NCBI GenBank assembly: GCA_964016885.1
Contig: OZ024743.1
Location: 111,290,001 to 111,354,000, forward strand
Source: Eledone cirrhosa
Lineage: Eukaryota
Direction: 5' to 3'
DNA: 64,000 nucleotides
The position numbers and the translations under genes are program-made. How positions within the stretch are numbered: the stretch's first letter is position 1; each line of letters opens with the position of its first letter. A model generated the notes under the pieces. It was not told where the DNA came from. It did no database searches and was given only the letters and a program-made list of their open reading frames with translations. This document shows, piece after piece, positions 4,362 through 59,290 of the stretch.

Positions 4362-7300
4362 TATTTCTATTTATTTGCCACCCGGGCATCAAAGATTGGG
4401 ACACATACAAAGGGGGGAGTTTACATACATTTAAAAAGACGTGTAAAAAACATATAACAAATTAAATTTAACAATCGATGTCCTCAATAGGGAGGGGTGT
4501 TGACATGGGTCGCACACACCTCCGAAAAAATGTGGAACCCTCCTCTTCAGGAGCACAAAGAGCGGGTGCTTCCTTCCTCTTCTCATTCTTCTCCTCTCTC
4601 ACCTACAGGCTGATATAGAGAGAAGGCCCATTCACTCGGGCCATTCTCGCTACTTTCACCCATCTTTCATAAAACTTGCTGGGGTAGAGCACCTCTCTCT
4701 TCATTCTGATCCTTCTTCTAAAGTGGTACTTGAAAAAAAAGACCAATTTATTGGCCGGAGAGATAGGTGTCTGACCTCAGCCCTTTCAACCTTGTCCACC
4801 ATACAACTTCTTTCGCCATGGCTATCACACAGAGGAAAACCGCCTCTCCTTCGTTTTTGAAAGGGGGAGGCGGTTTGATTGTGACAATGTTCTCGGTGGT
4901 CAACCGGATTGGTCCCACCCGCGACAGTAGTCGTTCTACATAGCCCCACAGGTCAGCAACGCCCGGGCAGTGTACGAATGCGTGTGCGACGGTTTTCTCG
5001 TCACGCACGCATCTTGGACAGATCTTCTGCGAGGGGTCCCTACCCGGGCGCCCGTGTCTGTAGAGCTTGTCCCGAACGGGTAGAGCTCCTCGGTAACATT
5101 GCCAAGCCAGGGACCTTTGGAAGTTGTCCATCGGTCCCGGACCAAACGTCCTACCGAACAGACTTGACAGCTCGTCTTCCTCCATGCCCAGAGCCTCTCC
5201 GAGAGCGTCGTCGCACTTACTGCGCACCAACCCTCTATAGAATGTTGAGGTTGAGTCTCCACTGATTGCCGGTTCCGTTGCCAGAGGGCCGTGAGCGCCT
5301 GGGCACATTCAATGTGCCAGTCGCCCACTTTTCTCGGTCTTTGCTTGACCCAGGATTGCAGCTCGGTGAGGTAAACGAGTCTCGGAAAGGCTCGCCTCAC
5401 AAACAGGGCCCACACCGGCTGACCGGTGAGGAATACCTGGAGGTGCCGTAGCCTTAATGCGTGTCTACGCATCGTCAGCCACGGCAGCCCCAGCCCTCCA
5501 TTCGAAAGGTGTTGACAGCAGATGGATCTTCTCACCAAAGGAGCCCGCTTCTTCCAAAGAAATCGGAAGAGCGCGCGCTCCATTTAGGAGAGTGTTTTCT
5601 CTGGGCAAGGCACGATGGTCAAGCGGTAGTAGATGACGGACGCTATATAAGCGTTCGCCACCTCCGCTCGACCTTTCAGGGATAGTTTGCACTCGGCCCA
5701 CTTCTGGGCGAGTGTAAACACCTTGCCCGTTACCTCGTCCCAGTTTTTCTCCACCTGGAGGTCCGGTCCGAACCAGACTCCGAGCAGCTTCACTGGTCCC
5801 TCCGTCCAGCGTCCGACGATGCCGTCGGAGGGCATCGTTTTGCCCCTCCACGTTCCGAGTTGCAAACCGACGGACTTGTCCCGGTTCAGCTTGGCTCCTG
5901 TGAACCTTTCATATTCCTCCAGTAAGGTGCCGATCTGCCCGATTTTCGAGGCGCACGACACCATTACTGTCACGTCATCAGCGTAGGCCGACACCGCTTT
6001 CCGCAATCCCGGTTCCAAGGGGATGCCCTGCAACAGCTCCAGATTCCTCAGTAGTGGCTCGAGAGCCAGCACATACAGGAGGGAGGAGAGAGGGCATCCA
6101 TGTCGAATGGATCGCGTGATTTGGAACGGCTCCGAGAGGTAGCCGTTCAACTTGACCCACTAGCAGGTGTTGCTGCTGTGCATTGCAGCAATCCAGCCCC
6201 TGAAAACGGGTCCGAAGCCTGCCGCCGCGAGCACCGCATCCAGGTACCGATGGTCAACCCTATCGAACGCTTTAGATTGATCCAAGTTGATCAGGGCTCC
6301 ACCAAAGCCGGGTTCGTTCCCTACCCTCTCTACGATGTATCGTATGAGGTGGAGGTTGTCGTGTATGGACCTGGACGGGATTGCGCATGTCTGCGCTTCT
6401 CCCACCAGGTTCCCGACGACAAGCGCCAACCTCTTCGCTAACACCTTGGCCAAAATCTTTAACTTTGTGTTTAGCAGAGTTATGGGCCTGAAGTTATCTA
6501 TGTCATCCCCCTTGTTCTCGTCCTTCCTCGCCAGCGTGACTACGCCCTTGGTCACAGAACTGGGAATTCTCCCGTTCTGTTGCCAATTGCAGTAGACCGC
6601 CTCGAGGAGACCGGAGAACAAGCCCGGCATCGCTACATAAAGTTCGTATGGTAGACCATCGAGACCCGGAGAATTGCGATTGCCGCATTGGCTCAGCGCT
6701 TCCCCTATTTTAGCGGCTGAAATCGGCCTCTCGCAGGACTTCGCCTCACCGTCCGAGAGCCGCGCCAGACCGTCGAGGTATGGACCGAAATCCATGGCCC
6801 CACCCGGCCCACCGCCCCTCCCGAAGAGTCGTGCAAAGCGCCGTTGAAAGGCCGCGCTCATCCGCTCAGGTTCAAGGATCACGCGTCCATCCTGGTCCTT
6901 CAATGACCGAATCGTGGACTTTTTTCCACTTTTTGCCTCTGTCACTCGGGCCCAGCTAACAGCTTTGGCTCCTTCGTTACCCACTGCACGTATTTTACTC
7001 CTGACAACGCAGCCCTCGTGCTTCGCATCAAAGAACTGGTCTAGAGCCGTTCTTGACGCCAGCACGCCGGCCACGTTGCCACTCCTAATCGCCTCTTCTT
7101 CTCTATTTGTTAATTCCCTTTCAGTTCTATTCCTATCTGATGCTAATTCCCGACTAAAACGTATCGATTCTGTTCTAATTTCTCTTTTGAGAGAGCCCCA
7201 CCACCTGTTGTTTACAATTGCCCCCGTCAAACGCTGCTTAACTAGTGTGCTAATCCGCTTACTGTAAGCTTTGTTTGTCGGTAAAGACAAGTTTAGCTTC

Positions 7301-9113
7301 CAGTAACCGGGTCCCTGTCTATGAGTTCTATCAAGGTTGAACACTCCGGTCAACAACTTGTGATCCGAATAGTCAACCATGAACATTCGTGGACAGTTTA
7401 ATATGTCCCTATCCTTATTACTAACTAGGAACCTATCTAGGTACGACCTGGATGTTCCGCTGCGATTACTCCACGTCCACCGTGGCACAGTCGGAAAATC
7501 CAGTCGATATCTATCGGCCAGATCAAATCGGCCGATTAATCGTTTGAGGCTGTTACACCCCCCTCTATCGGGACATGCCCCTACATACTCCCAACGTGTA
7601 TCCAGGATACCATTCCAGTCCCCCACTAAAAGCAAGGAGCGAGACGTTCCCAGGAAATTCTCCAGGCGTCGGAAGAAGTCCGGTCGCGGAGTCCCCGATG
7701 AGGCATACGCTGCCACCAGCCTGAAAGCTCCACCTTCACCACTGCCGACGTCTAAAACCACCACTCGACCCTCCAGGTCCAGGTGTACCTTCTGTGTGGC
7801 AAGACCAAGGTATTTTCGCAGTAGAACGACAACCTCACCCCCACCCCTCTGCTGACAGAGAGATGCGTAGATCTCAAAGTCGTCGAAGATGGGGGCCAGT
7901 TGGCGCTCGCTGCTGATCCTGGACTCGCAAATAACCATTACATCCACTCTGTGCGACCTGAGGTCATTTAATTGAGGATAGGCAGCCCTCAGGTGACCCC
8001 TGCTTAAGCAGTGGTAACATGACGTCCACCTTCCCTCCACTGAAATGTTTATATAAGTTAGCCCGTCCAGAGGCACGCGTTGTGGGATATTCGCTATTCG
8101 TTCTGGGCTCATTTGCACCAGAACTTCTACGGTGGTCCCACCAAATACACCTCCGGAGGACTTTCCTATTGAAATTATCTTGTCTTCGTCAAAGTTTATT
8201 ATTCCACATAGTATCCACCAAATGTTTACATTTGGTGTGATATTCATTATTTTTATTCTTTGTGTCTTTTTTCCCCTGTATGTGGGGTAAAAGGTGAAGC
8301 CGGGGGACACACTGGGTGCTATCGAGTACTTTTGAGCTGTTGACTGGTTGTTCATCAGCACCGAAATGCTACCAAACAGTTTACCTTTTTGTATGAAGGT
8401 TAAGTCCTTCATTGCGTCTTTTAGAACCAATCAATTTCATTTTGTGATAATTGAGCTGGTTTTCTTTTTACGTTCGATATTGTCCTGTGGTTTTCAGGAC
8501 AGCCTCTCTACGTAATTCCTGTGGAGAATTGATGCTAAAAGCACCGTTTCGCCAAAAGTCACGAATTGTTTTGCGGCTTGTATTAGTTGTTTAGCATTTG
8601 TTATGTCTATTGGCGTGTATAGTTCGTTTTTTTTTACGGTCTGTGCAAATGTTGTTTTGGTGTTGTTGTCTTTCATGTTACTGTCACTGTTGGTAATATT
8701 GGTGTTGCTATTGTTGCAGTTGATGGTTGTGGTGTTGTTGTCATTGTTCTTGTTGTTGGTGCTGGTATTATTTACCGGGTTTGGTTTCGCGGTTTCGATA
8801 TTTTCCACGTTTTTAGATGATACGAGGGGGGACGGCTGCAAGCTTTGTACTCCTACCTTCCCTTTTCTTAGTGGGCGTGGCACTCACGACAGCGTGCGAG
8901 GTGGAAATGGCATCCATTGCCACCAAGTCTACAGTTTTTAGATGAAAATTGAAAATTTCGCCCCAGAAAGGGGCGAAAATTTGTTGACTTAACGTCTGAA
9001 GGCCAAGGCAAGGGGCTAAACCAAACAATGTTATTAAATTGATCAATAAACTCACAGTTTTTTTGACAACAATCCGTAAAATTCCGGAGCAAAGTAAATC
9101 ACGTCTATATCAA
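4362..9113 (-). mobile_element. L1/Tx1-clade non-LTR retrotransposon, near full length, disrupted
   Basis: ORF1 pieces (8494-8883; 8430 down to ~7975 with knuckle CYHC..GH), APE endonuclease (GDWN, SYLDRF, SDH), RT (PGLDG, LDQSKAFDRVDH, YADD), C-terminal CPRC..HAFVHC; A-rich 3' end near 4362-4380; candidate TSD gtg(a/g)taattgatata. Confidence 0.92.
4748..8430 (-). pseudogene. Tx1 ORF1-ORF2 (APE + RT) broken by stops and frameshifts
   Basis: Track pieces 6160-8430, 5584-6150, 4936-5583 and 4748-5308 are consecutive parts of one polyprotein. Confidence 0.9.
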
Positions 9114-17600: not shown

Positions 17601-18510
17601 AGAGAGGAAAGAGACAGTGACCGTTTGAGGGAGAGTCGGGAAGGTGTAAGGGAGTGAGAGTGTGTGACGGAGAGAGAGAGAGAATGAGGGAGAAAGATTG
17701 AATGAAAGAGAGAAAGAAAACTTGTGTTATTGTGATTTTTGTGTGCGTTCATATATTCACCTTGTCTATCTTTTAGTTGGTTGCTGCGTGCGACTGTGTC
17801 TGTGCGCGAGAGTGTCTGTGAACGCGTGCGTGTAAGTGCTTGCTGTTATGTGTGTACCTCTCTCTATATACGTTTTTGTGTGTGTGTATGTTTAAGATGG
17901 AATGTGGGGGTTAAATTCGATGAGAATGGTGGTGGGAGGTGTTTGCGAGAAAATTACACGTGCTGACGCCAACCGTTCTTAATGGTTTCTCTTCGAACGA
18001 AGACATTTCCCCTCTATCTCTACCTCTCCACGCTGTCTCCCTCTTCCTCTATCTTCCATACCACTCTGTACTCCTCCATGGCACACCATTCCTCATTCTA
18101 ACACACCCTACTCAATAACACCCTTCTTAGCACTCTATGCGATTCTACTACACTCCAATCATACTACCCAATGACTACCCACTCTCTAAAGCCTTCCCAC
18201 CCCTTCCAGTTCTACTATATCCATCAACACTACAACTGCAAACCAGCACACCACAACTACCACTACCATCACTGCACCAAACATCACCACTGGAATTACC
18301 ACTACCACCACTGTGGTAAATATCACCATAACGACAACCACTAGCTCGACTGCGGTAAACATCACCAAAAACCACCAATAAAAACATTGCGAAAAACACC
18401 ACCAGCAAATTGCTACTGCCACCAATTCAGTAAACATCATCACTACAACTACTACCACTGTCACTGCAGCTAGCATTCTCACCACAAATACTACTACTAC
18501 CACGGCGGTA

Positions 18511-21010
18511 AACATGGACAGAACTAGCTTAAGATCCTCTACCAGCACTACCACAAACATCGACAGAACTAGCTTAGGATCCACTACCAGCACTACGGCA
18601 AACATTGACAGAACTAGCTTAAGATCCTCTACCAGCACTACGGCAAACATCGACAGGACTAGCGTAAGGTCCTCTACCAGCACTACGACAAACATCGACA
18701 GAACTAGCTTAAGATCCTCTACCAGCACTACGGCAAACATCGACAGAACTAGCTTAAGATCCTCTACCAGCACTACGGCAAACATCGACAGAACTAGCTT
18801 AAGATCCTCTACCAGCACTACGACAAACATCGACAGAACTAGCTTAAGATACACTAGCAGCACTACGACAAACATCGACAGAACTAGCTTAAGATCCTCT
18901 ACCAGCACTACGACAAACATCGACAGAACTAGCTTAAGATCCTCTACCAGCACTACGACAAACATCGACAGAACTAGCTTAAGATCCACTACCAGCACTA
19001 CGGCAAACATTGACAGAACTAGCTTAAGATACTCTACCAGCACTACGGCAAACATCGACAGGACTAGCGTAAGGTCCTCTACCAGCACTACGACAAACAT
19101 CGACAGAACTAGCTTAAGATCCTCTACCAGCACTACGGCAAACATCGACAGAACTAGCTTAAGATCCTCTACCAGCACTACGGCAAACATCGACAGAACT
19201 AGCTTAAGATCCTCTACCAGCACTACGACAAACATCGACAGAACTAGCTTAAGATCCTCTACCAGCACTACGACAAACATCGATAGAACTAGCTTAAGAT
19301 CCTCTACCAGCATTACCACAAACATTGACATAACTAGCTTAAGATACACTAGCAGCACTACGGCAAATATTGAGAGAACTAGCTTAAGATCCTCTACCAG
19401 CACTACGGCAAACATCGACAGAACTAGCTTAGGATCCACTACCAGCACTACGGCAAACATTGACAGAACTAGCTTAAGATCCACTACCAGCACTACCACA
19501 AACATCGACAGAACTAGCGTAAGATCCACTAGCAGCACTACGGCAAATATTGAGAGAACTAGCTTAAGATCCTCTACCAGCAATACGGCAAACATTGACA
19601 GAACTAGCTTAAGATCCTCTACCAGCACTACGACAAACATCGACAGAACTAGCTTAGGATCCACTACCAGCACTACGGCAAACATTGACAGAACTAGCTT
19701 AAGATCCTCTACCAGCACTACGACAAACATCGACAGAACTAGCTTAAGATCCTCTACCAGCACTACGGCAAACATCGACAGAACTAGCTTAAGATCCTCT
19801 ACCAGCACTACGACAAACATCGACAGAACTAGCTTAGGATCCACTACCAGCACTACGGCAAACATTGACAGAACTAGCTTAAGATACTCTACCAGCACTA
19901 CGGCAAACATCGACAGGACTAGCGTAAGGTCCTCTACCAGCACTACGACAAACATCGACAGAACTAGCTTAAGATCCTCTACCAGCACTACGGCAAACAT
20001 CGACAGAACTAGCTTAAGATCCTCTACCAGCACTACGACAAACATCGACAGAACTAGCTTAGGATCCTCTACCAGCATTACCACAAACATTGACATAACT
20101 AGCTTAAGATACACTAGCAGCACTACGGCAAATATTGAGAGAACTAGCTTAAGATCCTCTACCAGCACTACGACAAACATCGACAGAACTAGCTTAGGAT
20201 CCACTACCAGCACTACGGCAAACATTGACAGAACTAGCTTAAGATCCACTACCAGCACTACCACAAACATCGACAGAACTAGCGTAAGATCCACTAGCAG
20301 CACTACGGCAAATATTGAGAGAACTAGCTTAAGATCCTCTACCAGCAATACGGCAAACATTGACAGAACTAGCTTAAGATCCTCTACCAGCACTACGACA
20401 AACATCGACAGAACTAGCTTAAGATCCTCTACCAGCACTACGACAAACATCGACAGAACTAGCTTAAGATCCTCTACCAGCACTACGACAAACATCGACA
20501 GAACTAGCTTAAGATCCTCTACCAGCATTACCACAAACATCGACATAACTAGCTTAAGATCCTCTACCAGCATTACCACAAACATCGACATAACTAGCTT
20601 AAGATACACTAGCAGCACTACGGCAAACATTGACAGAACTAACTTAAGATCCTCTACCAGCACTACGACAAACATCGACAGAACTAGCTTAAGATCCTCT
20701 ACCAGCACTACGACAAACATCGACAGAACTAGCTTAAGATCCTCTACCAGCATTACCACAAACATCGACATAACTAGCTTAAGATACACTAGCAGCACTA
20801 CGGCAAACATTGACAGCACTAGCTTAAGATGCACTACCAGCACTACGTCAAACATTGACAGAACTAGCTTAAGATACACTACCAGCACTACGGCAAACAT
20901 TGACAGAACTAGCTTAAGATACACTACCAGCACTACGGCAAACATTGACAGAACTAGCTTAAGATACCCTACCAGCACTACGGCAACCATTGACAGAACT
21001 AGCTTAGGAT
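18511..21010. repeat. 45-bp minisatellite, ~55 units
   Basis: Unit aacatcgacagaactagcttaagatcctctaccagcactacg(g/a)ca; higher-order duplication with 765-bp (17-unit) spacing. Confidence 0.97.
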
Positions 21011-21108
21011 CCCCAACCAAGACTGCGTCTAACACCTTCAGCACTGACTTAAGCACCACTACCAACAGTTCCACTAGTATCACCACGAAATTGCCATCGC
21101 TACTATGA
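18514..21108 (+). CDS. Possible mucin-like Thr/Ser-rich repeat exon (NIDRTSLRSSTSTTA)n
   Basis: 864-aa ORF; Thr-rich non-repeat flanks in the same frame; no splice evidence. Confidence 0.35.
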   Translation: MDRTSLRSSTSTTTNIDRTSLGSTTSTTANIDRTSLRSSTSTTANIDRTSVRSSTSTTTNIDRTSLRSSTSTTANIDRTSLRSSTSTTANIDRTSLRSSTSTTTNIDRTSLRYTSSTTTNIDRTSLRSSTSTTTNIDRTSLRSSTSTTTNIDRTSLRSTTSTTANIDRTSLRYSTSTTANIDRTSVRSSTSTTTNIDRTSLRSSTSTTANIDRTSLRSSTSTTANIDRTSLRSSTSTTTNIDRTSLRSSTSTTTNIDRTSLRSSTSITTNIDITSLRYTSSTTANIERTSLRSSTSTTANIDRTSLGSTTSTTANIDRTSLRSTTSTTTNIDRTSVRSTSSTTANIERTSLRSSTSNTANIDRTSLRSSTSTTTNIDRTSLGSTTSTTANIDRTSLRSSTSTTTNIDRTSLRSSTSTTANIDRTSLRSSTSTTTNIDRTSLGSTTSTTANIDRTSLRYSTSTTANIDRTSVRSSTSTTTNIDRTSLRSSTSTTANIDRTSLRSSTSTTTNIDRTSLGSSTSITTNIDITSLRYTSSTTANIERTSLRSSTSTTTNIDRTSLGSTTSTTANIDRTSLRSTTSTTTNIDRTSVRSTSSTTANIERTSLRSSTSNTANIDRTSLRSSTSTTTNIDRTSLRSSTSTTTNIDRTSLRSSTSTTTNIDRTSLRSSTSITTNIDITSLRSSTSITTNIDITSLRYTSSTTANIDRTNLRSSTSTTTNIDRTSLRSSTSTTTNIDRTSLRSSTSITTNIDITSLRYTSSTTANIDSTSLRCTTSTTSNIDRTSLRYTTSTTANIDRTSLRYTTSTTANIDRTSLRYPTSTTATIDRTSLGSPTKTASNTFSTDLSTTTNSSTSITTKLPSLL

Positions 21109-27834: not shown

Positions 27835-28200
27835 ATATAAGATCAAAAGATGGTTAAAGGAGTTCCATGTATTTTATTATGCGCATTTCAAAAACAAACA
27901 TCATCATGAAATAATATTTGTGTTTTCATCAGATAAAACAGGAGAACATGATATGAAGGCTAAAAAACACTTGTGGATAGTGCAGTTTTAAATCAACCTA
28001 TTCTCCTGTTTTATCTGATGAAAACACAAATATTATTGCATGATGATGTTTTTTGAAATGCGCATAATAAAATACATGGAACTCCTTTAACCATCTTTTG
28101 ATCTTATGTTATGTATACTCCAGTCCTACAAACTGTAGAGTGCTTCTTATCCGATATCTGCATTGCTTTATTGTACTACAATAAAACTCACCTCCTACAT
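27835..28200. mobile_element. Inverted-repeat hammerhead element (family B)
   Basis: Arms ~27835-27945 and ~28000-28107 are reverse complements; a related copy lies at 31480-31797. Confidence 0.8.
28007..28074 (+). ncRNA. Type I hammerhead ribozyme motif
   Basis: Stem I tgttttat/ataaaata, CTGATGA(28015), stem II aaaca..tgttt, GAAA, palindromic stem III A-TGCGCA-T, predicted cleavage after TA(28066). Confidence 0.8.
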
Positions 28201-35717: not shown

Positions 35718-37858
35718 ATTGGAATAAATGCTCTGAAATAGCGATATATATGTGAATATAGACATAGAATATTCGAAAATATTCTGTATGTTTATAATAA
35801 ACATTTTGAAGACCTAATCGCTATAGAATAGAATACGTCACGTATTACAATTAGATTCTCGATAAAAGCAAGGGAAGTAATCTACGCGTTTCATTCTTGT
35901 TAGAAATCATCAGGACTACATATCCAGTGCTTTTATCGAGAATGACACAGCTAGAGACTTATAGAATACTTAGCTGTGTACAGGAACTGGTTTGAAAGAG
36001 CGGTTGCCGGTCCGGCAGAAATTAGAAATTGGAATAAATGCTCTGAAATAGCGATATATATGTGAATATAGACATAGAATATTCGAAAATATTCTGTATG
36101 TTTAGTCTCTAGCTGTGTCATTCTCGATAAAAGCACTGGATATGTAGTCCTGATGATTTCTAACAAGAATGAAACGCGTAGATTACTTCCCTTGCTTTTA
36201 TCGAGAATCTAATTGTAATACGTGACGTATTCTATTCTATAGCGATTAGGTCTTCAAAATGTTTATTATAAACATACAGAATATTTTCGAATATTCTATG
36301 TCTATATTCACATATATATCGCTATTTCAGAGCATTTATTCCAATTTCTAATTTCTGCCGGACCGGCAACCGCTCTTTCAAACCAGTTCCTGTACACAGC
36401 TAAGTATTCTATAAGTCTCTAGCTGTGTCATTCTCGATAAAAGCACTGGATATGTAGTCCTGATGATTTCTAACAAGAATGAAACGCGTAGATTACTTCC
36501 CTTGCTTTTATCGAGAATCTAATTGTAATACGTGACGTATTCTATTCTATAGCGATTAGGTCTTCAAAATGTTTATTATAAACATACAGAATATTTTCGA
36601 ATATTCTATGTCTATATTCACATATATATCGCTATTTCAGAGCATTTATTCCAATTTCTAATTTCTGCCGGACCGGCAACCGCTCTTTCAAACCAGTTCC
36701 TGTACACAGCTAAGTATTCTATAAGTCTCTAGCTGTGTCATTCTCGATAAAAGCACTGGATATGTAGTCCTGATGATTTCTAACAAGAATGAAACGCGTA
36801 GATTACTTCCCTTGCTTTTATCGAGAATCTAATTGTAATACGTGACGTATTCTATTCTATAGCGATTAGGTCTTCAAAATGTTTATTATAAACATACAGA
36901 ATATTTTCGAATATTCTATGTCTATATTCACATATATATCGCTATTTCAGAGCATTTATTCCAATTTCTAATTTCTGCCGGACCGGCAACCGCTCTTTCA
37001 AACCAGTTCCTGTACACAGCTAAGTATTCTATAAGTCTCTAGCTGTGTCATTCTCGATAAAAGCACTGGATATGTAGTCCTGATGATTTCTAACAAGAAT
37101 GAAACGCGTAGATTACTTCCCTTGCTTTTATCGAGAATCTAATTGTAATACGTGACGTATTCTATTCTATAGCGATTAGGTCTTCAAAATGTTTATTATA
37201 AACATACAGAATATTTTCGAATATTCTATGTCTATATTCACATATATATCGCTATTTCAGAGCATTTATTCCAATTTCTAATTTCTGCCGGACCGGCAAC
37301 CGCTCTTTCAAACCAGTTCCTGTACACAGCTAAGTATTCTATAAGTCTCTAGCTGTGTCATTCTCGATAAAAGCACTGGATATGTAGTCCTGATGATTTC
37401 TAACAAGAATGAAACGCGTAGATTACTTCCCTTGCTTTTATCGAGAATCTAATTGTAATACGTGACGTATTCTATTCTATAGCGATTAGGTCTTCAAAAT
37501 GTTTATTATAAACATACAGAATATTTTCGAATATTCTATGTCTATATTCACATATATATCGCTATTTCAGAGCATTTATTCCAATTTCTAATTTCTGCCG
37601 GACCGGCAACCGCTCTTTCAAACCAGTTCCTGTACACAGCTAAGTATTCTATAAGTCTCTAGCTGTGTCATTCTCGATAAAAGCACTGGATATGTAGTCC
37701 TGATGATTTCTAACAAGAATGAAACGCGTAGATTACTTCCCTTGCTTTTATCGAGAATCTAATTGTAATACGTGACGTATTCTATTCTATAGCGATTAGG
37801 TCTTCAAAATGTTTATTATAAACATACAGAATATTTTCGAATATTCTATGTCTATATT
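35718..37858. repeat. Array 1 of the 310-bp hammerhead unit (retrozyme-like): ~1.2 units on -, ~5.7 units on +
   Basis: Marker ttctcgataa at 36121, 36431, 36741, 37051, 37361, 37671; inversion junction at ~36103; (TA)n on both flanks. Confidence 0.95.
36120..36208 (+). ncRNA. Type I minimal hammerhead with extended stem I (repeats every 310 bp)
   Basis: attctcgataaaagca/tgcttttatcgagaat 16-bp stem; gtagtc-CTGATGA-t ttct aaca agaa t-GAAA-cgcg-TA-gattac; predicted cut after 36180. Confidence 0.85.
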
Positions 37859-42763: not shown

Positions 42764-42814
42764 TGTATATATATATATATATATATATAAATATTTATAT
42801 ATATATATATATAA

Positions 42815-45596
42815 ATTGGAATAAATGCTCTGAAATAGCGATATATATGTGAATATAGACATAGAATATTCGAAAATATTCTGTATGTTTATAATAAACA
42901 TTTTGAAGACCTAATCGCTATAGAATAGAATACGTCACGTATTACAATTAGATTCTCGATAAAAGCAAGGGAAGTAATCTACGCGTTTCATTCTCGTTAG
43001 AAATCATCAGGACTACATATCCAGTGCTTTTATCGAGAATGACACAGCTAGAGACTTATAGAATACTTAGCTGTGTACAGGAACTGGTTTGAAAGAGCGG
43101 TTGCCGGTCCGGCAGAAATTAGAAATTGGAATAAATGCTCTGAAATAGCGATATATATGTGAATATAGACATAGAATATTCGAAAATATTCTGTATGTTT
43201 ATAATAAACATTTTGAAGACCTAATCGCTATAGAATAGAATACGTCACGTATTACAATTAGATTCTCGATAAAAAGCAAGGGAAGTAATCTACGCGTTTC
43301 ATTCTCGTTAGAAATCATCAGGACTACATATCCAGTGCTTTTTATCGAGAATGACACAGCTAGAGACTTATAGAATACTTAGCTGTGTACAGGAACTGGT
43401 TTGAAAGAGCGGTTGCCGGTCCGGCAGAAATTAGAAATTGGAATAAATGCTCTGAAATAGCGATATATATGTGAATATAGACATAGAATATTCGAAATAT
43501 TCTGTATGTTTATAATAAACATTTTGAAGACCTAATCGCTATAGAATAGAATACGTCACGTATTACAATTAGATTCTCGATAAAAGCAAGGGAAGTAATC
43601 TACGCGTTTTCATTCTCGTTAGAAATCATCAGGACTACATATCCAGTGCTTTTATCGAGAATGACACAGCTAGAGACTTATAGAATACTTAGCTGTGTAC
43701 AGGAACTGGTTTCGAATATTCTATGTCTATATTCACATATATCGCTATTTCAGAGCATTTATTCCAATTTCTAATTTCTGCCGGACCGGCAACCGCTCTT
43801 TCAAACCAGTTCCTGTACACAGCTAAGTATTCTATAAGTCTCTAGCTGTGTCATTCTCGATAAAAGCACTGGATATGTAGTCCTGATGATTTCTAACGAG
43901 AATGAAACGCGTAGATTACTTCCCTTGCTTTTATCGAGAATCTAATTGTAATACGTGACGTATTCTATTCTATAGCGATTAGGTCTTCAAATGTTTATTA
44001 TAAACATACAGAATATTTTCGAATATTCTATGTCTATATTCACATATATATCGCTATTTCAGAGCATTTATTCCAATTTCTAATTTCTGCCGGACCGGCA
44101 ACCGCTCTTTCAAACCAGTTCCTGTACACAGCTAAGTATTCTATAAGTCTCTAGCTGTGTCCATTCTCGATAAAAGCACTGGATATGTAGTCCTGATGAT
44201 TTCTAACGAGAATGAAACGCGTAGATTACTTCCCTTGCTTTTATCGAGAATCTAATTGTAATACGTGACGTATTCTATTCTATAGCGATTAGGTCTTCAA
44301 AATGTTTTATTATAAAACATACAGAATATTTTCGAATATTCTATGTCTATATTCACATATATATCGCTATTTCAGAGCATTTATTCCAATTTCTAATTTC
44401 TGCCGGACCGGCAACCGCTCTTTCAAACCAGTTCCTGTACACAGCTAAGTATTCTATAAGTCTCTAGCTGTGTCATTCTCGATAAAAGCACTGGATATGT
44501 AGTCCTGATGATTTCTAACGAGAATGAAACGCGTAGATTACTTCCCTTGCTTTTATCGAGAATCTAATTGTAATACGTGACGTATTCTATTCTATAGCGA
44601 TTAGGTCTTCAAAATGTTTATTATAAACATACAGAATATTTTCGAATATTCTATGTCTATATTCACATATATATCGCTATTTCAGAGCATTTATTCCAAT
44701 TTCTAATTTCTGCCGGACCGGCAACCGCTCTTTCAAACCAGTTCCTGTACACAGCTAAGTATTCTATAAGTCTCTAGCTGTGTCATTCTCGATAAAAGCA
44801 CTGGATATGTAGTCCTGATGATTTCTAACGAGAATGAAACGCGTAGATTACTTCCCTTGCTTTTATCGAGAATCTAATTGTAATACGTGACGTATTCTAT
44901 TCTATAGCGATTAGGTCTTCAAAATGTTTATTATAAACATACAGAATATTTTCGAATATTCTATGTCTATATTCACATATATATCGCTATTTCAGAGCAT
45001 TTATTCCAATTTCTAATTTCTGCCGGACCGGCAACCGCTCTTTCAAACCAGTTCCTGTACACAGCTAAGTATTCTATAAGTCTCTAGCTGTGTCATTCTC
45101 GATAAAAGCACTGGATATGTAGTCCTGATGATTTCTAACGAGAATGAAACGCGTAGATTACTTCCCTTGCTTTTATCGAGAATCTAATTGTAATACGTGA
45201 CGTATTCTATTCTATAGCGATTAGGTCTTCAAAATGTTTATTATAAACATACAGAATATTTTCGAATATTCTATGTCTATATTCACATATATATCGCTAT
45301 TTCAGAGCATTTATTCCAATTTCTAATTTCTGCCGGACCGGCAACCGCTCTTTCAAACCAGTTCCTGTACACAGCTAAGTATTCTATAAGTCTCTAGCTG
45401 TGTCATTCTCGATAAAAGCACTGGATATGTAGTCCTGATGATTTCTAACGAGAATGAAACGCGTAGATTACTTCCCTTGCTTTTATCGAGAATCTAATTG
45501 TAATACGTGACGTATTCTATTCTATAGCGATTAGGTCTTCAAAATGTTTATTATAAACATACAGAATATTTTCGAATATTCTATGTCTATATTCAT
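42815..45596. repeat. Array 2 of the 310-bp hammerhead unit: ~2.9 units on -, ~6 units on +
   Basis: Same unit as array 1 but loop II reads aacg; junction at ~43712; (TA)n flanks. Confidence 0.95.
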
Positions 45597-45619
45597 ATAT
45601 ATATATATATGTGTGTATA

Positions 45620-45805
45620 GCAAGAGATATCAACATGAATGGACCTGTTATTTTTTTTATCTAAATACATTTTTTCAAATTCAAACCCGCCCGGCGCTTC
45701 GTTGCATCTTATTTCTCATTCTTTCTTCTGATGAAGGATTAGAGTCCGAAAGGTGAAGTCCCGCTTCCTGCTATTTCAAGCGTTAACCTAATATATTCCT
45801 TCCAT
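45620..45805 (+). mobile_element. Hammerhead-bearing short element (family D)
   Basis: CTGATGA(45728)-aggat taga gtcc-GAAA; homologous to 52310-52500. Confidence 0.7.
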
Positions 45806-52113: not shown

Positions 52114-52266
52114 AGTATATGGAATGAATATATTAGGTTAACGCTTGAAATAGCAGGAAGAGGGCCTTAACGTTTCGGACTATAATCCTTCATCAGAAGA
52201 AAGAATGAGAAATAAGATAGATTGAGGCGTCGGGCGGGTTGGAATTGAAGAAAAGTATTTAGATAA

Positions 52267-52308
<42 letters not shown>

Positions 52309-52500
52309 TGCAAGAGATGTCAACATGAATAGACCTGTTATTTTTATCTAAATACATTTTTTTCCAATTCCAACCCGTCCGACGCATCGATCTATCTTAT
52401 TTCTCATTATTTCTCTCTGATGAAGGATTTGAGTCAGAAACGTTAAGGCCCACTTCCTGCTATTTCAAGCGTTAACCTAATATAGTCCTTCCATATACTG
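52112..52500. mobile_element. Inverted-repeat hammerhead element (family D)
   Basis: Minus-strand motif 52164-52200 (CTGATGA-aggattatagtcc-GAAA-cgt-TA-agg); plus-strand motif from 52417. Confidence 0.8.

Positions 52501-53693: not shown

Positions 53694-53763
<70 letters not shown>
53694..53763. repeat. (TAA)n tract, Dong target
   Basis: Seen directly. Confidence 0.95.
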
Positions 53764-53765
<2 letters not shown>

Positions 53766-54197
53766 TGGGATTTTAGGATACAGACGGACAAGAAACTGGA
53801 ACACAATAGACCTGACCTGGTGGTTGTGGACAAAGAAAAAAGATCGTGTCTGATTGTGGATGTGGCCTGCCCATTCGATACGAGAGTGCAAGAGAAGGAG
53901 AGGGAGAAAATTAACCGATACCAGGACTTAAAGTGGGAGGTAAAAAGGATTTGGAAATGCCATGAAGTCAAAGTGATCCCGATTGTCATAGGCGCACTGG
54001 GGACTATCTGCAAAAGTTTCCAGGGATGGTTAAAGAATATCGGCCCCTTCACGCTTTTTGGAACGCTTCAAAAGGCATGCTTGCTGGGAACAGCAAGAAC
54101 CCTCCGATACGTCCTGATATCTGAAGCTGCAGGTAGTGGCTTGATATTCATTCCAACGGACTTTCCAGTTAACCAAAATCAATGACTGAGATTCAAG

Positions 54198-54276: not shown

Positions 54277-57200
54277 CCCCTCCCCTCCTCTCCTCTGGCT
54301 ACACTATATAGGACAGCTAAACTCACCAACACCAGAAACTAGATACACCACCCACCCCATCATCTGTGTACACTAAACACAACAGCCAGATAACGACACA
54401 TTTTCACCTTCACCGCCACCGCTCACTACGGCCATCATTACCACCACTATCCCATCACCGCCGCCACCACCCCTTGACTCCGCTACAGCACCATCACTAC
54501 AGTAATACGGTCACATCACCGCCACCACTGCCTCGGTATCGACATCACCACCACCACTGTCTCAGTATCGCTAACGCCGCCAGTCTCCCACTTCCCTGCT
54601 GGCTGCCACTTCCACATTATAGAATTCCTACTACTAACAAAGAGGAAGGCATCAAAATATATAGATAGACCCAAAAGAAAAAAGAAAAAACAAACAACAA
54701 AACCAAAGCAGCACAGCAACAACAGCAAAAAACGAGAAAAACAAACAGAGAAAAACAAAAACAAAAAAAAGAAACCCCAAAAACGTAAAGAAAATATATT
54801 GTTATAAGGCTCAAAACGTAAAGAAAATATATTGTTATAAGGCTCAAAACGTAAAGAAAATATATTGTTATAAGGCTCAAATATTCAAATATTCAACTTT
54901 GTATTGTACACTGTATATCCAAGAAAAAAAAAAAAAAAAAAATGGCTATAAATGGAAGAAGAACCCCTCCCCTCCTCTCCTCTGGCTACACTATATAGGA
55001 CAGCTAAACTCACCAACACCAGAAACTAGATACACCACCCACCCCATCATCTGTGTACACTAAACACAACAGCCAGATAACGACACATTTTCACCTTCAC
55101 CGCCACCGCTCACTACGGCCATCATTACCACCACTATCCCATCACCGCCGCCACCACCCCTTGACTCCGCTACAGCACCATCACTACAGTAATACGGTCA
55201 CATCACCGCCACCACTGCCTCGGTATCGACATCACCACCACCACTGTCTCAGTATCGCTAACGCCGCCAGTCTCCCACTTCCCTGCTGGCTGCTACTTCC
55301 ACATTATAGAATACCTACTACTAACAAAGAGGAAGGCATCAAAATATATAGATAGACCCAAAAGAAAAAAGAAAAAACAAACAACAAAACCAAAGCAGCA
55401 CAGCAACAACAGCAAAAAACGAGAAAAACAAACAGAGAAAAACAAAAACAAAAAAAAGAAACCCCAAAAACGTAAAGAAAATAAGAATGAAGAGAGAAGC
55501 AGGCGGACGGACAGAGAAGAGGGGGGAAAAAGTAAAACTTAAAAAACTAAAACTAAGTCAGACATTCGAACACTACATTACAATGAAACTTATGCTTATT
55601 CATTTCTGGGGCCCTTTCTGCCTGTGTGTTTGTTTGTTTATGTGTGTTCGTATACAGCGTGGTGATAATGCCACACAAGGGCCAAGTGGGATGGCGGATC
55701 CACAGATGGCTATGTAAACATACATTCGCCAATCCTCGATAAGAGTGTTTAAATATCGAACATAAACAGTTCGAATAACGGTGAAATGGAGACTAGAACG
55801 TCATGTGGCAGACTCTCACCCAACAGGTGCCCCCTGGCTCAGCAGCAGGAACCTGACTGTCAACCAAATACTGCTGATGTTGGAGGAAGGAGAAGAAGGA
55901 AAGGGGCCAGAACCAACTGGACGAAAGAATTGAATAGAACTGTTATGCAATGCTACCTGAAAAGTAACCCCAAGGAGAGGGGCTACAGGAGACGGATGCA
56001 TAACATCTGGAACGAGATTGGTTTATTTAAATTAGATGAACAAAAATTGGCCGGGCAGGCTCGGGTAATAAGAACTAATGGGTGGATAAGCGAGCTGGAA
56101 CTGGAGGAACTGAGCAGAGAGAATGGCTTGGAGATGGCGGGTGTAGTATGCCAGACAAGCGAGCCGGTGGGAAATGAAGGTGAGGAGGTCCTGAGAACGG
56201 AGGAACCACCCGAAGCAGACAATGATCTGAGTACTGAGATAAATAATACCTGGAACAGAGATACGGCCACTGAGGAGATGAATGCTGACGGGCTAGGACA
56301 AGATTCGGTTGACATCCTAAATGTAGTGGTAGATGAATTGAACAATGATAGTGGGAGACCTATGAACCTAAGATTTGTAGACAGGAAAAAGTTAAAAGAA
56401 ACAACAAGGTAAACAAAGTCATCCCATACCTTGAGGCGAGGAGCCTTCACCAGTGCAACAATATCCTCAGAGCAACAGCAAATACGGTGAGGAAACTACT
56501 TGGTATAAAAGCGAGAGGAAACAACAGACAAGAAAGAGCAGAGCCGTGGTGGAAGAAGCAACTGAGTGGGCAAATCGGGGAAATGAGAAATGACATAGGA
56601 AAGCTTGAGTCACTACTGAATGGGACACTAAAAAACATAGGCACTAAAAATAGACTGGAAATAAAATACAAAACTAGGAGTAAAAAGCTAAATATTATCA
56701 TAGAGGAATTGAAGCAACGCATTGTAGCAAAGAGTGCAAAAATCAGGCGATACGAGAACAGAGTCAGCCAGTATAAACAGAACCGCATGTTCGACAACAA
56801 CCAGAAGATGCTGTTTGGACAGCTTGAGGGCAAAGAAAGAGGCAACGACTTGATCCCTGGGGCGGAGCAAACTAAAACATTCTGGAGAGGAATATGGGAG
56901 CAGGATGTTAGACACAATGCCCAGGCAGGGTGGATTGAGACAGTACAGAGGGAGATCGGTGAGCAGGCACAGCAACAGACTGATTTGAGTATCACAGTTG
57001 AAACTCTTAAGGGGCAAGCCAAAAAACTAACCAACTGGAAATCACCAGGCCCAGATGGTGTGCAGGGGTATTGGATTAAACATCTAACATCCCTCCACCC
57101 GAAGCTGACGGCCATGTTCAATGACTGCTTGGTGTCGGGTGAGGTGCCAGAGTGGTTGACAAAAGGTACCACAGTTCTGATAATGAAAGACCGAATCAAG

Positions 57201-59290
57201 GGTAATGATGCTACCAACTATAGACCTATCACATGTCTGCCCGTAATGTGGAAACTGTTGACGAGCATTGTGTCTGAGGAAATCTACCATCACCTCCACA
57301 CAAACAACTTGTTACCGGACGAACAGAAAGGATGCCGAAAGAAGTCACGTGGTACAAAGGACCAGTTGCTTATTGATAAGATGGTAATGGGGAATTGCAG
57401 GAGGAGACATACTGATCTTGCCATGGGATGGATAGACTACAGAAAGGCATTTGACATGGTGCCTCATTCCTGGATCACCAAAAGCCTGGAGATCTTCAGG
57501 GTGGCAGATAACATCAGACAGTTGCTAGGCAGGAGTATGGGGTCCTGGGAGACAGAGTTGACATCAACTGGAGTATCCTTGGGAAGCGTGAAGATCAAGA
57601 GAGGTATCTTCCAGGGAGATAGCCTGTCCCCTCTGTTGTTTGTCCTTGCCCTGATGCACTTAACCATTATGCTGCGAAAAGTGAGAGCAGGATACAAGTT
57701 GGGAAGGGGAGAGCTTACCATCAATCACCTCCTCTTCATGGACGATCTTAAGCTCTTCGGGAAAAGTGAGAAGGAGTTGGATGTGCTTGTTGACACTGTC
57801 CGTATTTTCAGCAGTGATATATGTATGCAGTTTGGTATTGGTAAATGTGGAGTCATTGTGATGAAGAGGGGTAGGTTGAGCAGAAGTAACGGGATCCAGA
57901 TACCAACAGGTGAGATGATAAAGGAAATTGACTCTGAGGAAGGATACAAGTATTTGGGCGTTCTGGAGGCTGATGGCATAAAGAACAAAATAATGAAGGA
58001 ATTGTTAAGAACTGAATACATTCGGAGAGTAAGGAGCGTATTGAAGTCACATCTGAACAGCAGAAATGCCATAAGCGCAGTAAATTCCCGAGCTGTGTCT
58101 ATTATTAGGTACAGTGCGGGAATTCTGAGATGGAATGTTGCTGAACAGAAAGAAATGGATAGGAAGACTAGGAAGCTATTGACTATCTACAACATGTTCC
58201 ACAAGAGGAGTGATGTCGATAGACTCTACCTAAGGAGATCTGAGGGTGGAAGAGGTCTTATCAGCATAGAGGACTGTGTTCAGATGGAGAAAAACAACCT
58301 ATACAAATACGTGACCTATAGTAAGGAGCCAATGCTCAGAGCTGTACTGAAGGAGGGGACAGTAGGCCAGGGGATGTCCAGGGAGGAAATAACATCAAGG
58401 AGGAAGAGCAGCCTTAAGGGAAAACCCCTTCATAGTACCTTCTTTGAGAAAACTGAATTTAGAGATCCACAGACATGGAACTGGTTGAGAAGAGGAGACC
58501 TCAAAAAGGCTACAGAAGGAATGCTAATGGCTGCGCAGGAGCAGGCCCTCAAAACGAAGTGGTTGAAGCACCATATCTACAAAGAGGAGGCCAGCCCACT
58601 GTGCAGGATCTGTGGAGAGAGAGAGGAGACTGTGGCTCACATTGTGTCCGAGTGTAAACACCTAGCCCAGACCCACTATAAGGGCTGGAGACACGATGTG
58701 ATGGGCAGGGTGATCCACTGGCACCTGTGCAAAGTAAACAATCTACCACATTCTGAGAAATGGTATGAGCATAGGCCAGAGGCGGTGATGGAGAACAATC
58801 AGGTGAAGGTGCTGTGGGATTTTAGGATACAGACGGACAAAAAACTGGAACACAATAGACCTGACCTGGTGGTTGTGGACAAAGAAAAAAGATCGTGCCT
58901 GATTGTGGATGTGGCCTGCCCGTTCGACACGAGAGTGCAAGAGAAGGAGAGGGAGAAAATTAACCGATACCAGGACCTAAAGTGGGAGGTGAAAAGGATT
59001 TGGAACTGCCATGAAGTCAAAGTGATCCCGATTGTCATAGGCGCACTGGGGACTATCTCCAAAAGTTTCCAGGGATGGTTAAAGAAAATCGGCCCCTTCA
59101 CGCTTTTTGGAACGCTTCAAAAGGCATGCTTGCTTGGAACAGCAAGAACCCTCCGATACGTCCTGAATATCTGAGGCTGCAGGTAGTGGCTTGATATTCA
59201 ATCCAACGGACTTTCCAGTTAACCAACATCAATGACTGAGAATCAAGGAATAACAATAACAATAATAATAATAATAATAATATTGATAAT
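54275..59290 (+). mobile_element. R4/Dong-clade non-LTR retrotransposon, near full length, in (TAA)n
   Basis: Single long frame with RT and RLE domains, short 3'UTR, (TAA)n tail; 5' boundary uncertain because the leader is duplicated. Confidence 0.92.
55786..59174 (+). CDS. R4/Dong RT-RLE polyprotein with one frameshift at ~56405
   Basis: N-terminus RTNWTKELN..CY..S.P..RGYRRRM..IW; RT motifs PGPDG, IDYRKAFD, GIFQGDSLSP, LFMDDLK; CRIC..H..EC; RPD..IVDVACP. Confidence 0.9.

Follow-up and report, generated by a model that had tools for sequence, protein, structure and literature searches.

The hairpins of the 310-nt unit that is repeated in tandem in the window (the whole stretch of 64,000 nucleotides that was analysed) are real and its helices are maintained by selection, which acts on the fold at the level of families and also at that of single insertion events. 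The unit is a non-LTR retrozyme, and a young one. Its helices are kept by compensatory change and, in our opinion, it is probably the RNA circle of such a retrozyme, copied by a Penelope-like enzyme into (TA)n from both cut strands.

Fold of the unit

We number the unit from position 36104 of the window (u1), a single copy (u1-u310) occupying 36104-36413 on the + strand. Like retrozymes, which have less than 50% GC and encode no protein, it has 34% GC and a longest ATG frame of 30 aa, and it is found as dispersed tandem repeats in the 150-450 bp range with a type I hammerhead in each. A search of the unit for a Pol III promoter gave no A box and one weak match to the B box, and no LTR, PBS or PPT was seen in it by eye.

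An earlier note on this DNA had described the unit as built from hairpins, among them a 16-bp extension of hammerhead stem I. This pairing is exact: 36120-36135 (+, u17-32) is the reverse complement of 36193-36208 (+, u90-105), while the longest perfect non-overlapping inverted repeat in 500 dinucleotide shuffles did not exceed 13 bp. The 5' strand of the extension has a pairing probability of 0.95; the 3' strand is the predicted clamp for both ends of a cleaved monomer. Folded as a circle, the check which the note had proposed for its compact fold, the unit reaches -67.8 kcal/mol (z -4.16), a value attained by none of 150 shuffles; the linear fold reaches -73.7 kcal/mol (z -4.06, none of 100 shuffles as low). 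The bulk of this signal comes from the ribozyme arm, which has a z of -6.5 when folded alone, the remaining 221 nt having a z of only -2.5 (4 of 200 shuffles as low). In the predicted circular fold 59% of the bases are paired at p>0.5 and about 40% are unpaired, and the shape is branched. The minus strand folds comparably well (z -5.3), so that energy alone does not set the strand; the strand is set by the hammerhead core, which occurs in one polarity only.

The arms of the other hairpins which had been listed are all present (36218/36225, 36278/36290, 36356/36363, and 36394 with 36110 or 36420), two of them having been miscounted by one pair. The arms atacgt/acgtat and tgccgg/ccggca sit one base apart and a 1-nt loop cannot form, so the two hairpins are one pair shorter than listed; the feasible ones have 6 bp (36217-36231, +) and 5 bp (36356-36368, +), each with a 3-nt loop. 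An 8-bp hairpin with a UUCG loop (36278-36297, +) stands about 12 nt upstream of the first of the two sites at which the arrays end (see below), and a 9-bp helix (36394-36428, +) spans the unit boundary, 36394-36402 pairing with 36420-36428, which is 36110-36118 on the circle. To these we add a hairpin absent from the earlier list (u156-172, 36259-36275, +; probability 0.42 in the family) and a weak candidate hairpin with the end site E1 in its loop (36297-36316, +), which is clearer in the sister families. Two more candidate helices, u136-140 with u218-222 and u226-230 with u269-273, appear in single folds.

The hammerhead

The type I hammerhead lies at 36144-36186 (+), with stem I at 36144-36149/36181-36186, a core box at 36150-36156, a stem II with U.U at its base (36157/36170), a palindromic stem III (36174-36179) and a predicted cut site after 36180 (u77). 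Its core boxes and cleavage triplet around the three helices are intact, as in the canonical type I hammerhead, and its dimensions are those by which this type is defined in PMC4209133: a helix I of 6 bp and a helix III of 1-2 bp with a palindromic loop. Hammerheads with a 6-nt palindromic stem III are said there to act as dimers, sparing monomer circles. The G10.1-C11.1 pair is missing and is replaced by U.U in the family and by A-U in one haplotype, the sister family B2 having G-C; according to the portion of PMC7229834 that bears on this, U.U at the base of helix II is also found in a weakly active axolotl motif. No Rfam model matches the window at the gathering threshold. The best match is Hammerhead_HH9, whose 19.2 bits are far below its 52-bit cut-off and whose alignment includes the bulge and loop II; when four sister loci were scanned with Rfam by E-value, the matches were repeats and a single weak hammerhead.

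The 16-bp helix does enclose the ribozyme, as had been claimed, through two loops rather than a single internal one, a 2x2 loop and a 3x1 bulge separated by a 3-bp helix (36136-36143, +, on the 5' side). The 3-nt stem I bulge (36141-36143) is a candidate docking loop. The likely docking bases are conserved: the bulge U, which precedes the core by nine bases, is the same in 25 of 27 copies compared, and the AA..A of loop II in all 27. Docking itself has indirect support only, from this conservation and from the Rfam alignment, which places both loops on those of Hammerhead_HH9. We take the bulge U and the loop II A to be the partners of the published reverse-Hoogsteen contact. A conserved loop contact of this kind is described for hammerheads in PMC6155905.

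The ends of the cleaved monomer are predicted to be paired through stem I and its extension with a probability of 0.95-0.99. Stem II has a pairing probability of only 0.14, and a double-hammerhead fold is predicted to lie 6.4 kcal/mol above the free minimum. As a separate post hoc observation, the segment u303-u28 (equivalent to window 36096-36131) matches the antisense of the hammerhead of another family, P, at 26 of 36 positions (0 of 2000 shuffles; matches in L106:985-1045 and L108:3216-3330), the sister family B1 having no such match. As long as u90-105 has not been transcribed, the predicted partner of this segment is the core of its own unit, and the segment might thus constitute a folding switch.

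Compensatory changes in sister families

Three older sister families, B1, B2 and B3, were found in the flanks of other loci of the same genome, two diagnostic patterns giving 2,121 and 5,948 matches. Their identity to the family is 72-77% across u136-290 and falls to about 50% in the ribozyme arm. We aligned, by sequence alone, 7 copies of the family and 21 copies from the sisters, of which 17 had been chosen by eye among 40 full units and 4 were near-full B1 copies, leaving stem I and the u114 hairpin out of the count as their alignment is out of register. The compensatory changes that the earlier note expected among homologs were found: 95.6% of the helix cells are paired, against 33.6-46.6% in slid controls, and there are 102 cells with a double change, a number reached in none of 500 shuffles. 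The count of covarying pairs taken alone is not above the shuffles (107 of 500), and the double changes stem from about four lineages, hence from few independent events.

The helices are not equally supported: some matter and others are incidental. In the long helix 10 of the 16 pairs are in register, 6 of these 10 change on both sides, and 96.4% of the cells are paired; the 23 sister units left out of the alignment agree, with 217 of 230 cells paired. All 4 pairs of stem II change on both sides. In the UUCG hairpin (u175) 2 of 8 pairs do so, the loop becoming GCAA or GCCA in the sisters, and in the u156-172 hairpin one pair is double-changed. The 3:8 pair of the core is C-G in 16, U-A in 29 and otherwise in 6 of 51 rows, U3-A8 being a published hammerhead variant (PMC4209133). 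Two variants within the family are G.U intermediates between the family and sister states. The u253 hairpin (tgccg/cggca) has no double change: it shows one-sided changes only, and 4 of its pairs are kept in the sisters. Neither acacagcta/tagctgtgt nor atacgt/acgtat covaries in register with the sister families: the boundary helix is family-specific, and it and the u114 hairpin are replaced in the sisters by other local hairpins, that of u114 at the same place. RNAalifold proposed a long-range pairing of the tail with u146-159, which we rejected, as it has no double change and a probability of 0 in the circular fold.

Selection within the family

We compared array-wide with single-unit substitutions in 51 loci having at least 2 full units, L046 and L070 being left out because they hold two insertions each. 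There are 23 array-wide substitutions and 38 confined to single units. In nine predefined helices, 7 of 7 array-wide changes keep the pair, against 1 of 17 single-unit changes (p 2e-5), and no array-wide change falls in the 11 core bases at these 51 loci. The same test on all pairs of probability over 0.5 gives 7/9 against 2/22 (p 4e-4); on raw MFE pairs it is weaker (6/14 against 2/24, p 0.03). Array-wide variants thus preserve pairs and single-unit ones mostly do not, which means that the templates that founded the insertions had kept the fold.

An excess of A-to-G was also observed: it accounts for 7 of the 23 changes that are array-wide and for 2 of the 44 in single units. At u43 this change recurs on several haplotype backgrounds (L057, L042, L051, L059, L223, L227) and it switches inside one arm of L057. 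RNA editing or tolerated G.U pairs could explain the excess.

Anatomy of the insertions

The first insertion in the window consists of an inverted arm of 1.25 units (35719-36104, -), whose outer end is of the type that we call E2, and of a direct arm of 5.7 units (36104-37858, +), whose outer end is of the other type, E1; both ends lie in (TA)n. In the second, an inverted arm of 2.9 units (42813-43712, -; outer end E2) faces a direct arm of 6.1 units (43710-45595, +; outer end E1). A loop II variant is present in both arms of the second insertion and absent from the first.

Copies in the genome (3.0 Gb) were counted from exact sequence patterns. A 27-mer of the unit, which misses several haplotypes, has 8,509 exact copies; there are about 1,250 E2 junctions (624 forward, reverse matches being double-counted) and 912 E1 junctions of one subtype. 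Among the first 100 matches, 10 of 12 unselected clusters run minus-then-plus and none plus-then-minus. We sampled 40 regions, nearly all at E2 matches, together with 20 at E1 matches and the two insertions of the window, and obtained 56 insertions with two arms, 6 in which a single arm is visible (in one case next to an assembly gap) and 1 incomplete at the edge of its region. All 56 are back-to-back arrays in (TA)n with one end at u205-209 (E1) and the other at u241-249 (E2), 54 having been assigned automatically and W1 and L031 by inspection. The outer ends of the two arms are therefore offset by about 34 nt, and this segment (u208-242, 36311-36345, +), which each of the 56 insertions carries on exactly one of its arms, matches the "tail" of Penelope elements. 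The sister families end at the same two sites. Since (TA)n lies on both flanks, the length of a target-site duplication, expected to be longer than 4 bp, is not readable.

The arms have median lengths of 989 and 1,460 nt, the longest measuring 8,459 nt, and hold up to 27 units. Among 17 haplotypes, the same one is common to both arms in 35 of 37 testable insertions, where chance agreement would be 0.15; in the other two the arms are distinguished by a single variant in part of one arm. Some single-unit variants are repeated in L043 and L047. The inner junctions overlap by at least 2 nt in 25 of 35 gap-free centre rows, against 18% expected, and 9 more rows contain inserts (among these 44 rows, one is a duplicate and one comes from an old sister copy). 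Of 86 inner ends, a single one lies close to the cut site. We rejected the hairpins as the usual joining sites of the arms, as they are used in 2 of the 44 rows only.

Three arrays stand out. The centre of the insertion in L031 (5885-6062) has three strand switches, two of which use the same 5-nt overlap. In L160 (1500-1989) a tandem derivative of B2, with a unit of 163 nt, lacks the whole ribozyme arm, its array keeping only the start domain and the tail, and a 17-unit B2 array in L172 (731-5827, minus) has strongly heterogeneous units, unlike the uniform young arrays.

Other elements in the window

Several more small elements with hammerheads occur in the window, most of them paired back to back in the vicinity of (TA)n (27840-28110, 28442/29208, 45610-45800, 52150-52480, 52733/53295 and 60970). 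At 56352-59174 (+) a frame of 940 aa, adjoining (TAA)n, has an RT domain and a likely restriction-type endonuclease end, and a copy of the 3' end of this element lies upstream at 53694-54185; it resembles the R4/Dong-type elements. We also noted a broken non-LTR element with endonuclease and RT domains (4748-8430, -) and a 45-bp repeat in 56 copies (18510-21019), open on both strands (908 and 986 aa).

Comparison with known systems

The unit is likely to be a folded RNA parasite of a known kind, the animal retrozyme. It has in common with the non-LTR retrozymes of coral, mussel and axolotl, as the main text of PMC7229834 presents them, a tandem unit of 150-450 nt, a type I hammerhead, a low GC content, the lack of an ORF and a self-paired fold, the last being seen here in the computed fold, the covariation and the selection tests; its helix II base is that of axolotl HHR_Amex2 and its short palindromic helix III that of HHR_Amex1. 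It differs from what is presented in the main texts of PMC7229834 and of a vertebrate survey (bioRxiv 10.64898/2026.07.22.740005) by its two-armed inverted insertions, tail, (TA)n targeting and covariation, and also in being known from DNA alone. The word "inverted" is absent from the main text of PMC7229834, and our literature search, which covered few subscription journals, found no published description of two-armed retrozyme insertions or of covariation in a retrozyme fold. That retrozyme circles are copied into tandem cDNA by Penelope-like enzymes is proposed in the main text of PMC7229834; that of the vertebrate survey links retrozymes to pLTRs by homology.

The earlier note had called the fold viroid/retrozyme-like. 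Of these two likenesses, that to retrozymes holds and that to viroids is poorer. Hammerhead viroids and viroid-like satellites resemble the unit in size, ribozyme and predicted folded circle, but hammerhead viroids have ribozymes in both polarities and no DNA form, whereas here the ribozyme is in one polarity, the fold is branched rather than a rod, with its large unpaired fraction, and the unit exists as genomic DNA. Canonical type I hammerheads (Schistosoma type, Hammerhead_HH9; PMC4209133, PMC6155905) share with the unit a 6-bp helix I, a helix II of four positions and an alignable bulge and loop II, and share the U3-A8 variant with the sisters; unlike Hammerhead_HH9, the unit lacks G10.1-C11.1 and departs from the model on the 3' side of the internal loop.

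The likeness to Penelope-like elements is in the insertions. Passages of PMC8557442 and PMC3846280 give as hallmarks an inverted 5' copy and a tail of 30-40 bp; for the anole element in vitro, a section of PMC11167929 describes cutting of both strands, two internal RT starts bounding the tail and a predicted dimer. The insertions of the unit are likewise head-to-head, as in non-autonomous Penelope-like elements, with a tail of this size at one end only, an AT-rich target, a hammerhead upstream of the start sites and microhomology at the inner junctions. Unlike Penelope-like elements, the unit has no ORF and both arms are multi-unit arrays of one 310-nt monomer. We are highly confident that the element is a new family of retrozyme with a Penelope footprint.

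The genome holds many RT-GIY-YIG elements. In 71 loci (50 GIY-YIG and 21 of family P; 150 of 10,596 candidates were scored) we found no autonomous element sharing the start domain u136-242. Families P and N, the latter having RT plus GIY-YIG, also leave insertions with two ends in (TA)n, but their tails measure about 68 nt (P) and about 50 nt (N); we rejected them as partners, the tail lengths being different and the start domain having no significant match in them. Loci of family N (L104, L107, L228) and of family P (L106, L108, L112, L164) carry hammerheads with U.U at the base of stem II. A 340-nt cyclic contig of depth 10-15 was found in three sequencing runs of unspecified kind; a tandem DNA array gives the same contig.

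Origin of the arrays

The mechanism which appears best to us, and which we would favour with somewhat more than even confidence, is twin-primed copying of one circle. The arrays would be transcribed and neighbouring hammerheads would cut as dimers, single ones being presumably weak with their U.U at the base of stem II and their 6-nt palindromic stem III. Stem I and the 16-bp extension are predicted to hold the ends of the released monomer together for ligation. The conserved hairpin cluster u136-242 would then be bound by a Penelope-like RT-endonuclease, which would start two cDNAs about 34 nt apart, one on each nicked strand; both cDNAs would circle the same monomer and finally join at their inner ends. 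The end product is what we observe: a pair of back-to-back arrays that share a haplotype, one having its outer end at E1 and the other at E2.

The same structured RNA and a Penelope-like enzyme could also be at work on another template, a long transcript that reads through an array already uniform and is left uncleaved. One RNA primed twice would yield concordant arms too, with no stop at the cut site, and the ribozyme looks weak; cleavage is dispensable in vitro for the anole element, whose main substrate is the uncleaved RNA (section of PMC11167929), and 8 of 9 Xenopus dimers did not cleave, according to the main text of bioRxiv 10.64898/2026.07.22.740005. However, on such a template a new variant would remain confined to its unit. 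Rare variants are instead found throughout whole arrays (for example in all 14 units of L064 and all 12 of L052), so that a single-unit bottleneck is needed; moreover, arms reach 27 units, and the core and helices are under selection between insertions. We regard this linear template as unlikely, though deserving of attention.

Less probable still is a cleaved but unligated monomer, its ends clamped by the long stem I, in which the RT would jump the nick at each round. It would produce the same single-unit bottleneck and the end clamp is indeed predicted, but nearly all of 315 units have a clean junction at the cut site, inner ends show no accumulation at this site, and circles predominate in coral, mussel and axolotl (main text of PMC7229834).

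The hairpins might instead be functionless leftovers of inverted duplications of the DNA, the arrays having grown from single insertions by unequal crossing-over, a local tandem growth discussed in the main text of bioRxiv 10.64898/2026.07.22.740005. The element routinely makes inverted junctions, both strands fold well, and u303-u28 has its resemblance to an antisense hammerhead. This is largely refuted by the double changes with G.U intermediates, by the switch between C3-G8 and U3-A8, by the contrast between array-wide and single-unit variants, and by the oppositely oriented arms, which have identical haplotypes at about 4e-4 divergence; we give it very little credence. We find it equally implausible that the second arm is a self-primed snap-back copy of the first cDNA made with no second RNA priming, which predicts the same head-to-head layout and haplotype, has been proposed for rotifer elements (in part of PMC3846280) and might find an echo in the complex centre of L031, because either arm may be the longer (the E1 arm in 24 of 54), the length of one arm does not correlate with that of the other (rho 0.12), and each outer end is fixed at a site of its own.

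Coming back to twin-primed copying of a circle, we advance tentatively, at a little under even confidence, that the circle has two modules: a dimer-gated hammerhead arm whose long stem I would close it, and the hairpin cluster u136-242, on which a Penelope-type RT dimer would dock, with two cDNA starts 34 nt apart and both cDNAs rolling round the same circle.

Significance

Since retrozymes are expected to have a folded unit and a long stem I, the fold is by itself unsurprising. The useful part is the evidence for selection on the fold, which separates the helices that matter from incidental ones. The inverted ends and tails of Penelope-like elements, and the copying of retrozyme circles, are stated as open questions in passages of PMC8557442, of PMC7229834 and of bioRxiv 10.64898/2026.07.22.740005. 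With its 310 nt, its mapped start sites and its natural compensatory variants, the element is a good minimal substrate for the Penelope mechanism, on which both questions can be tested. If the two-module reading is true, the genome would preserve more than a thousand direct records of rolling-circle reverse transcription with twin priming, the inverted repeat and tail of Penelope would be explained, and an RNA element that sets the start sites would have been named.
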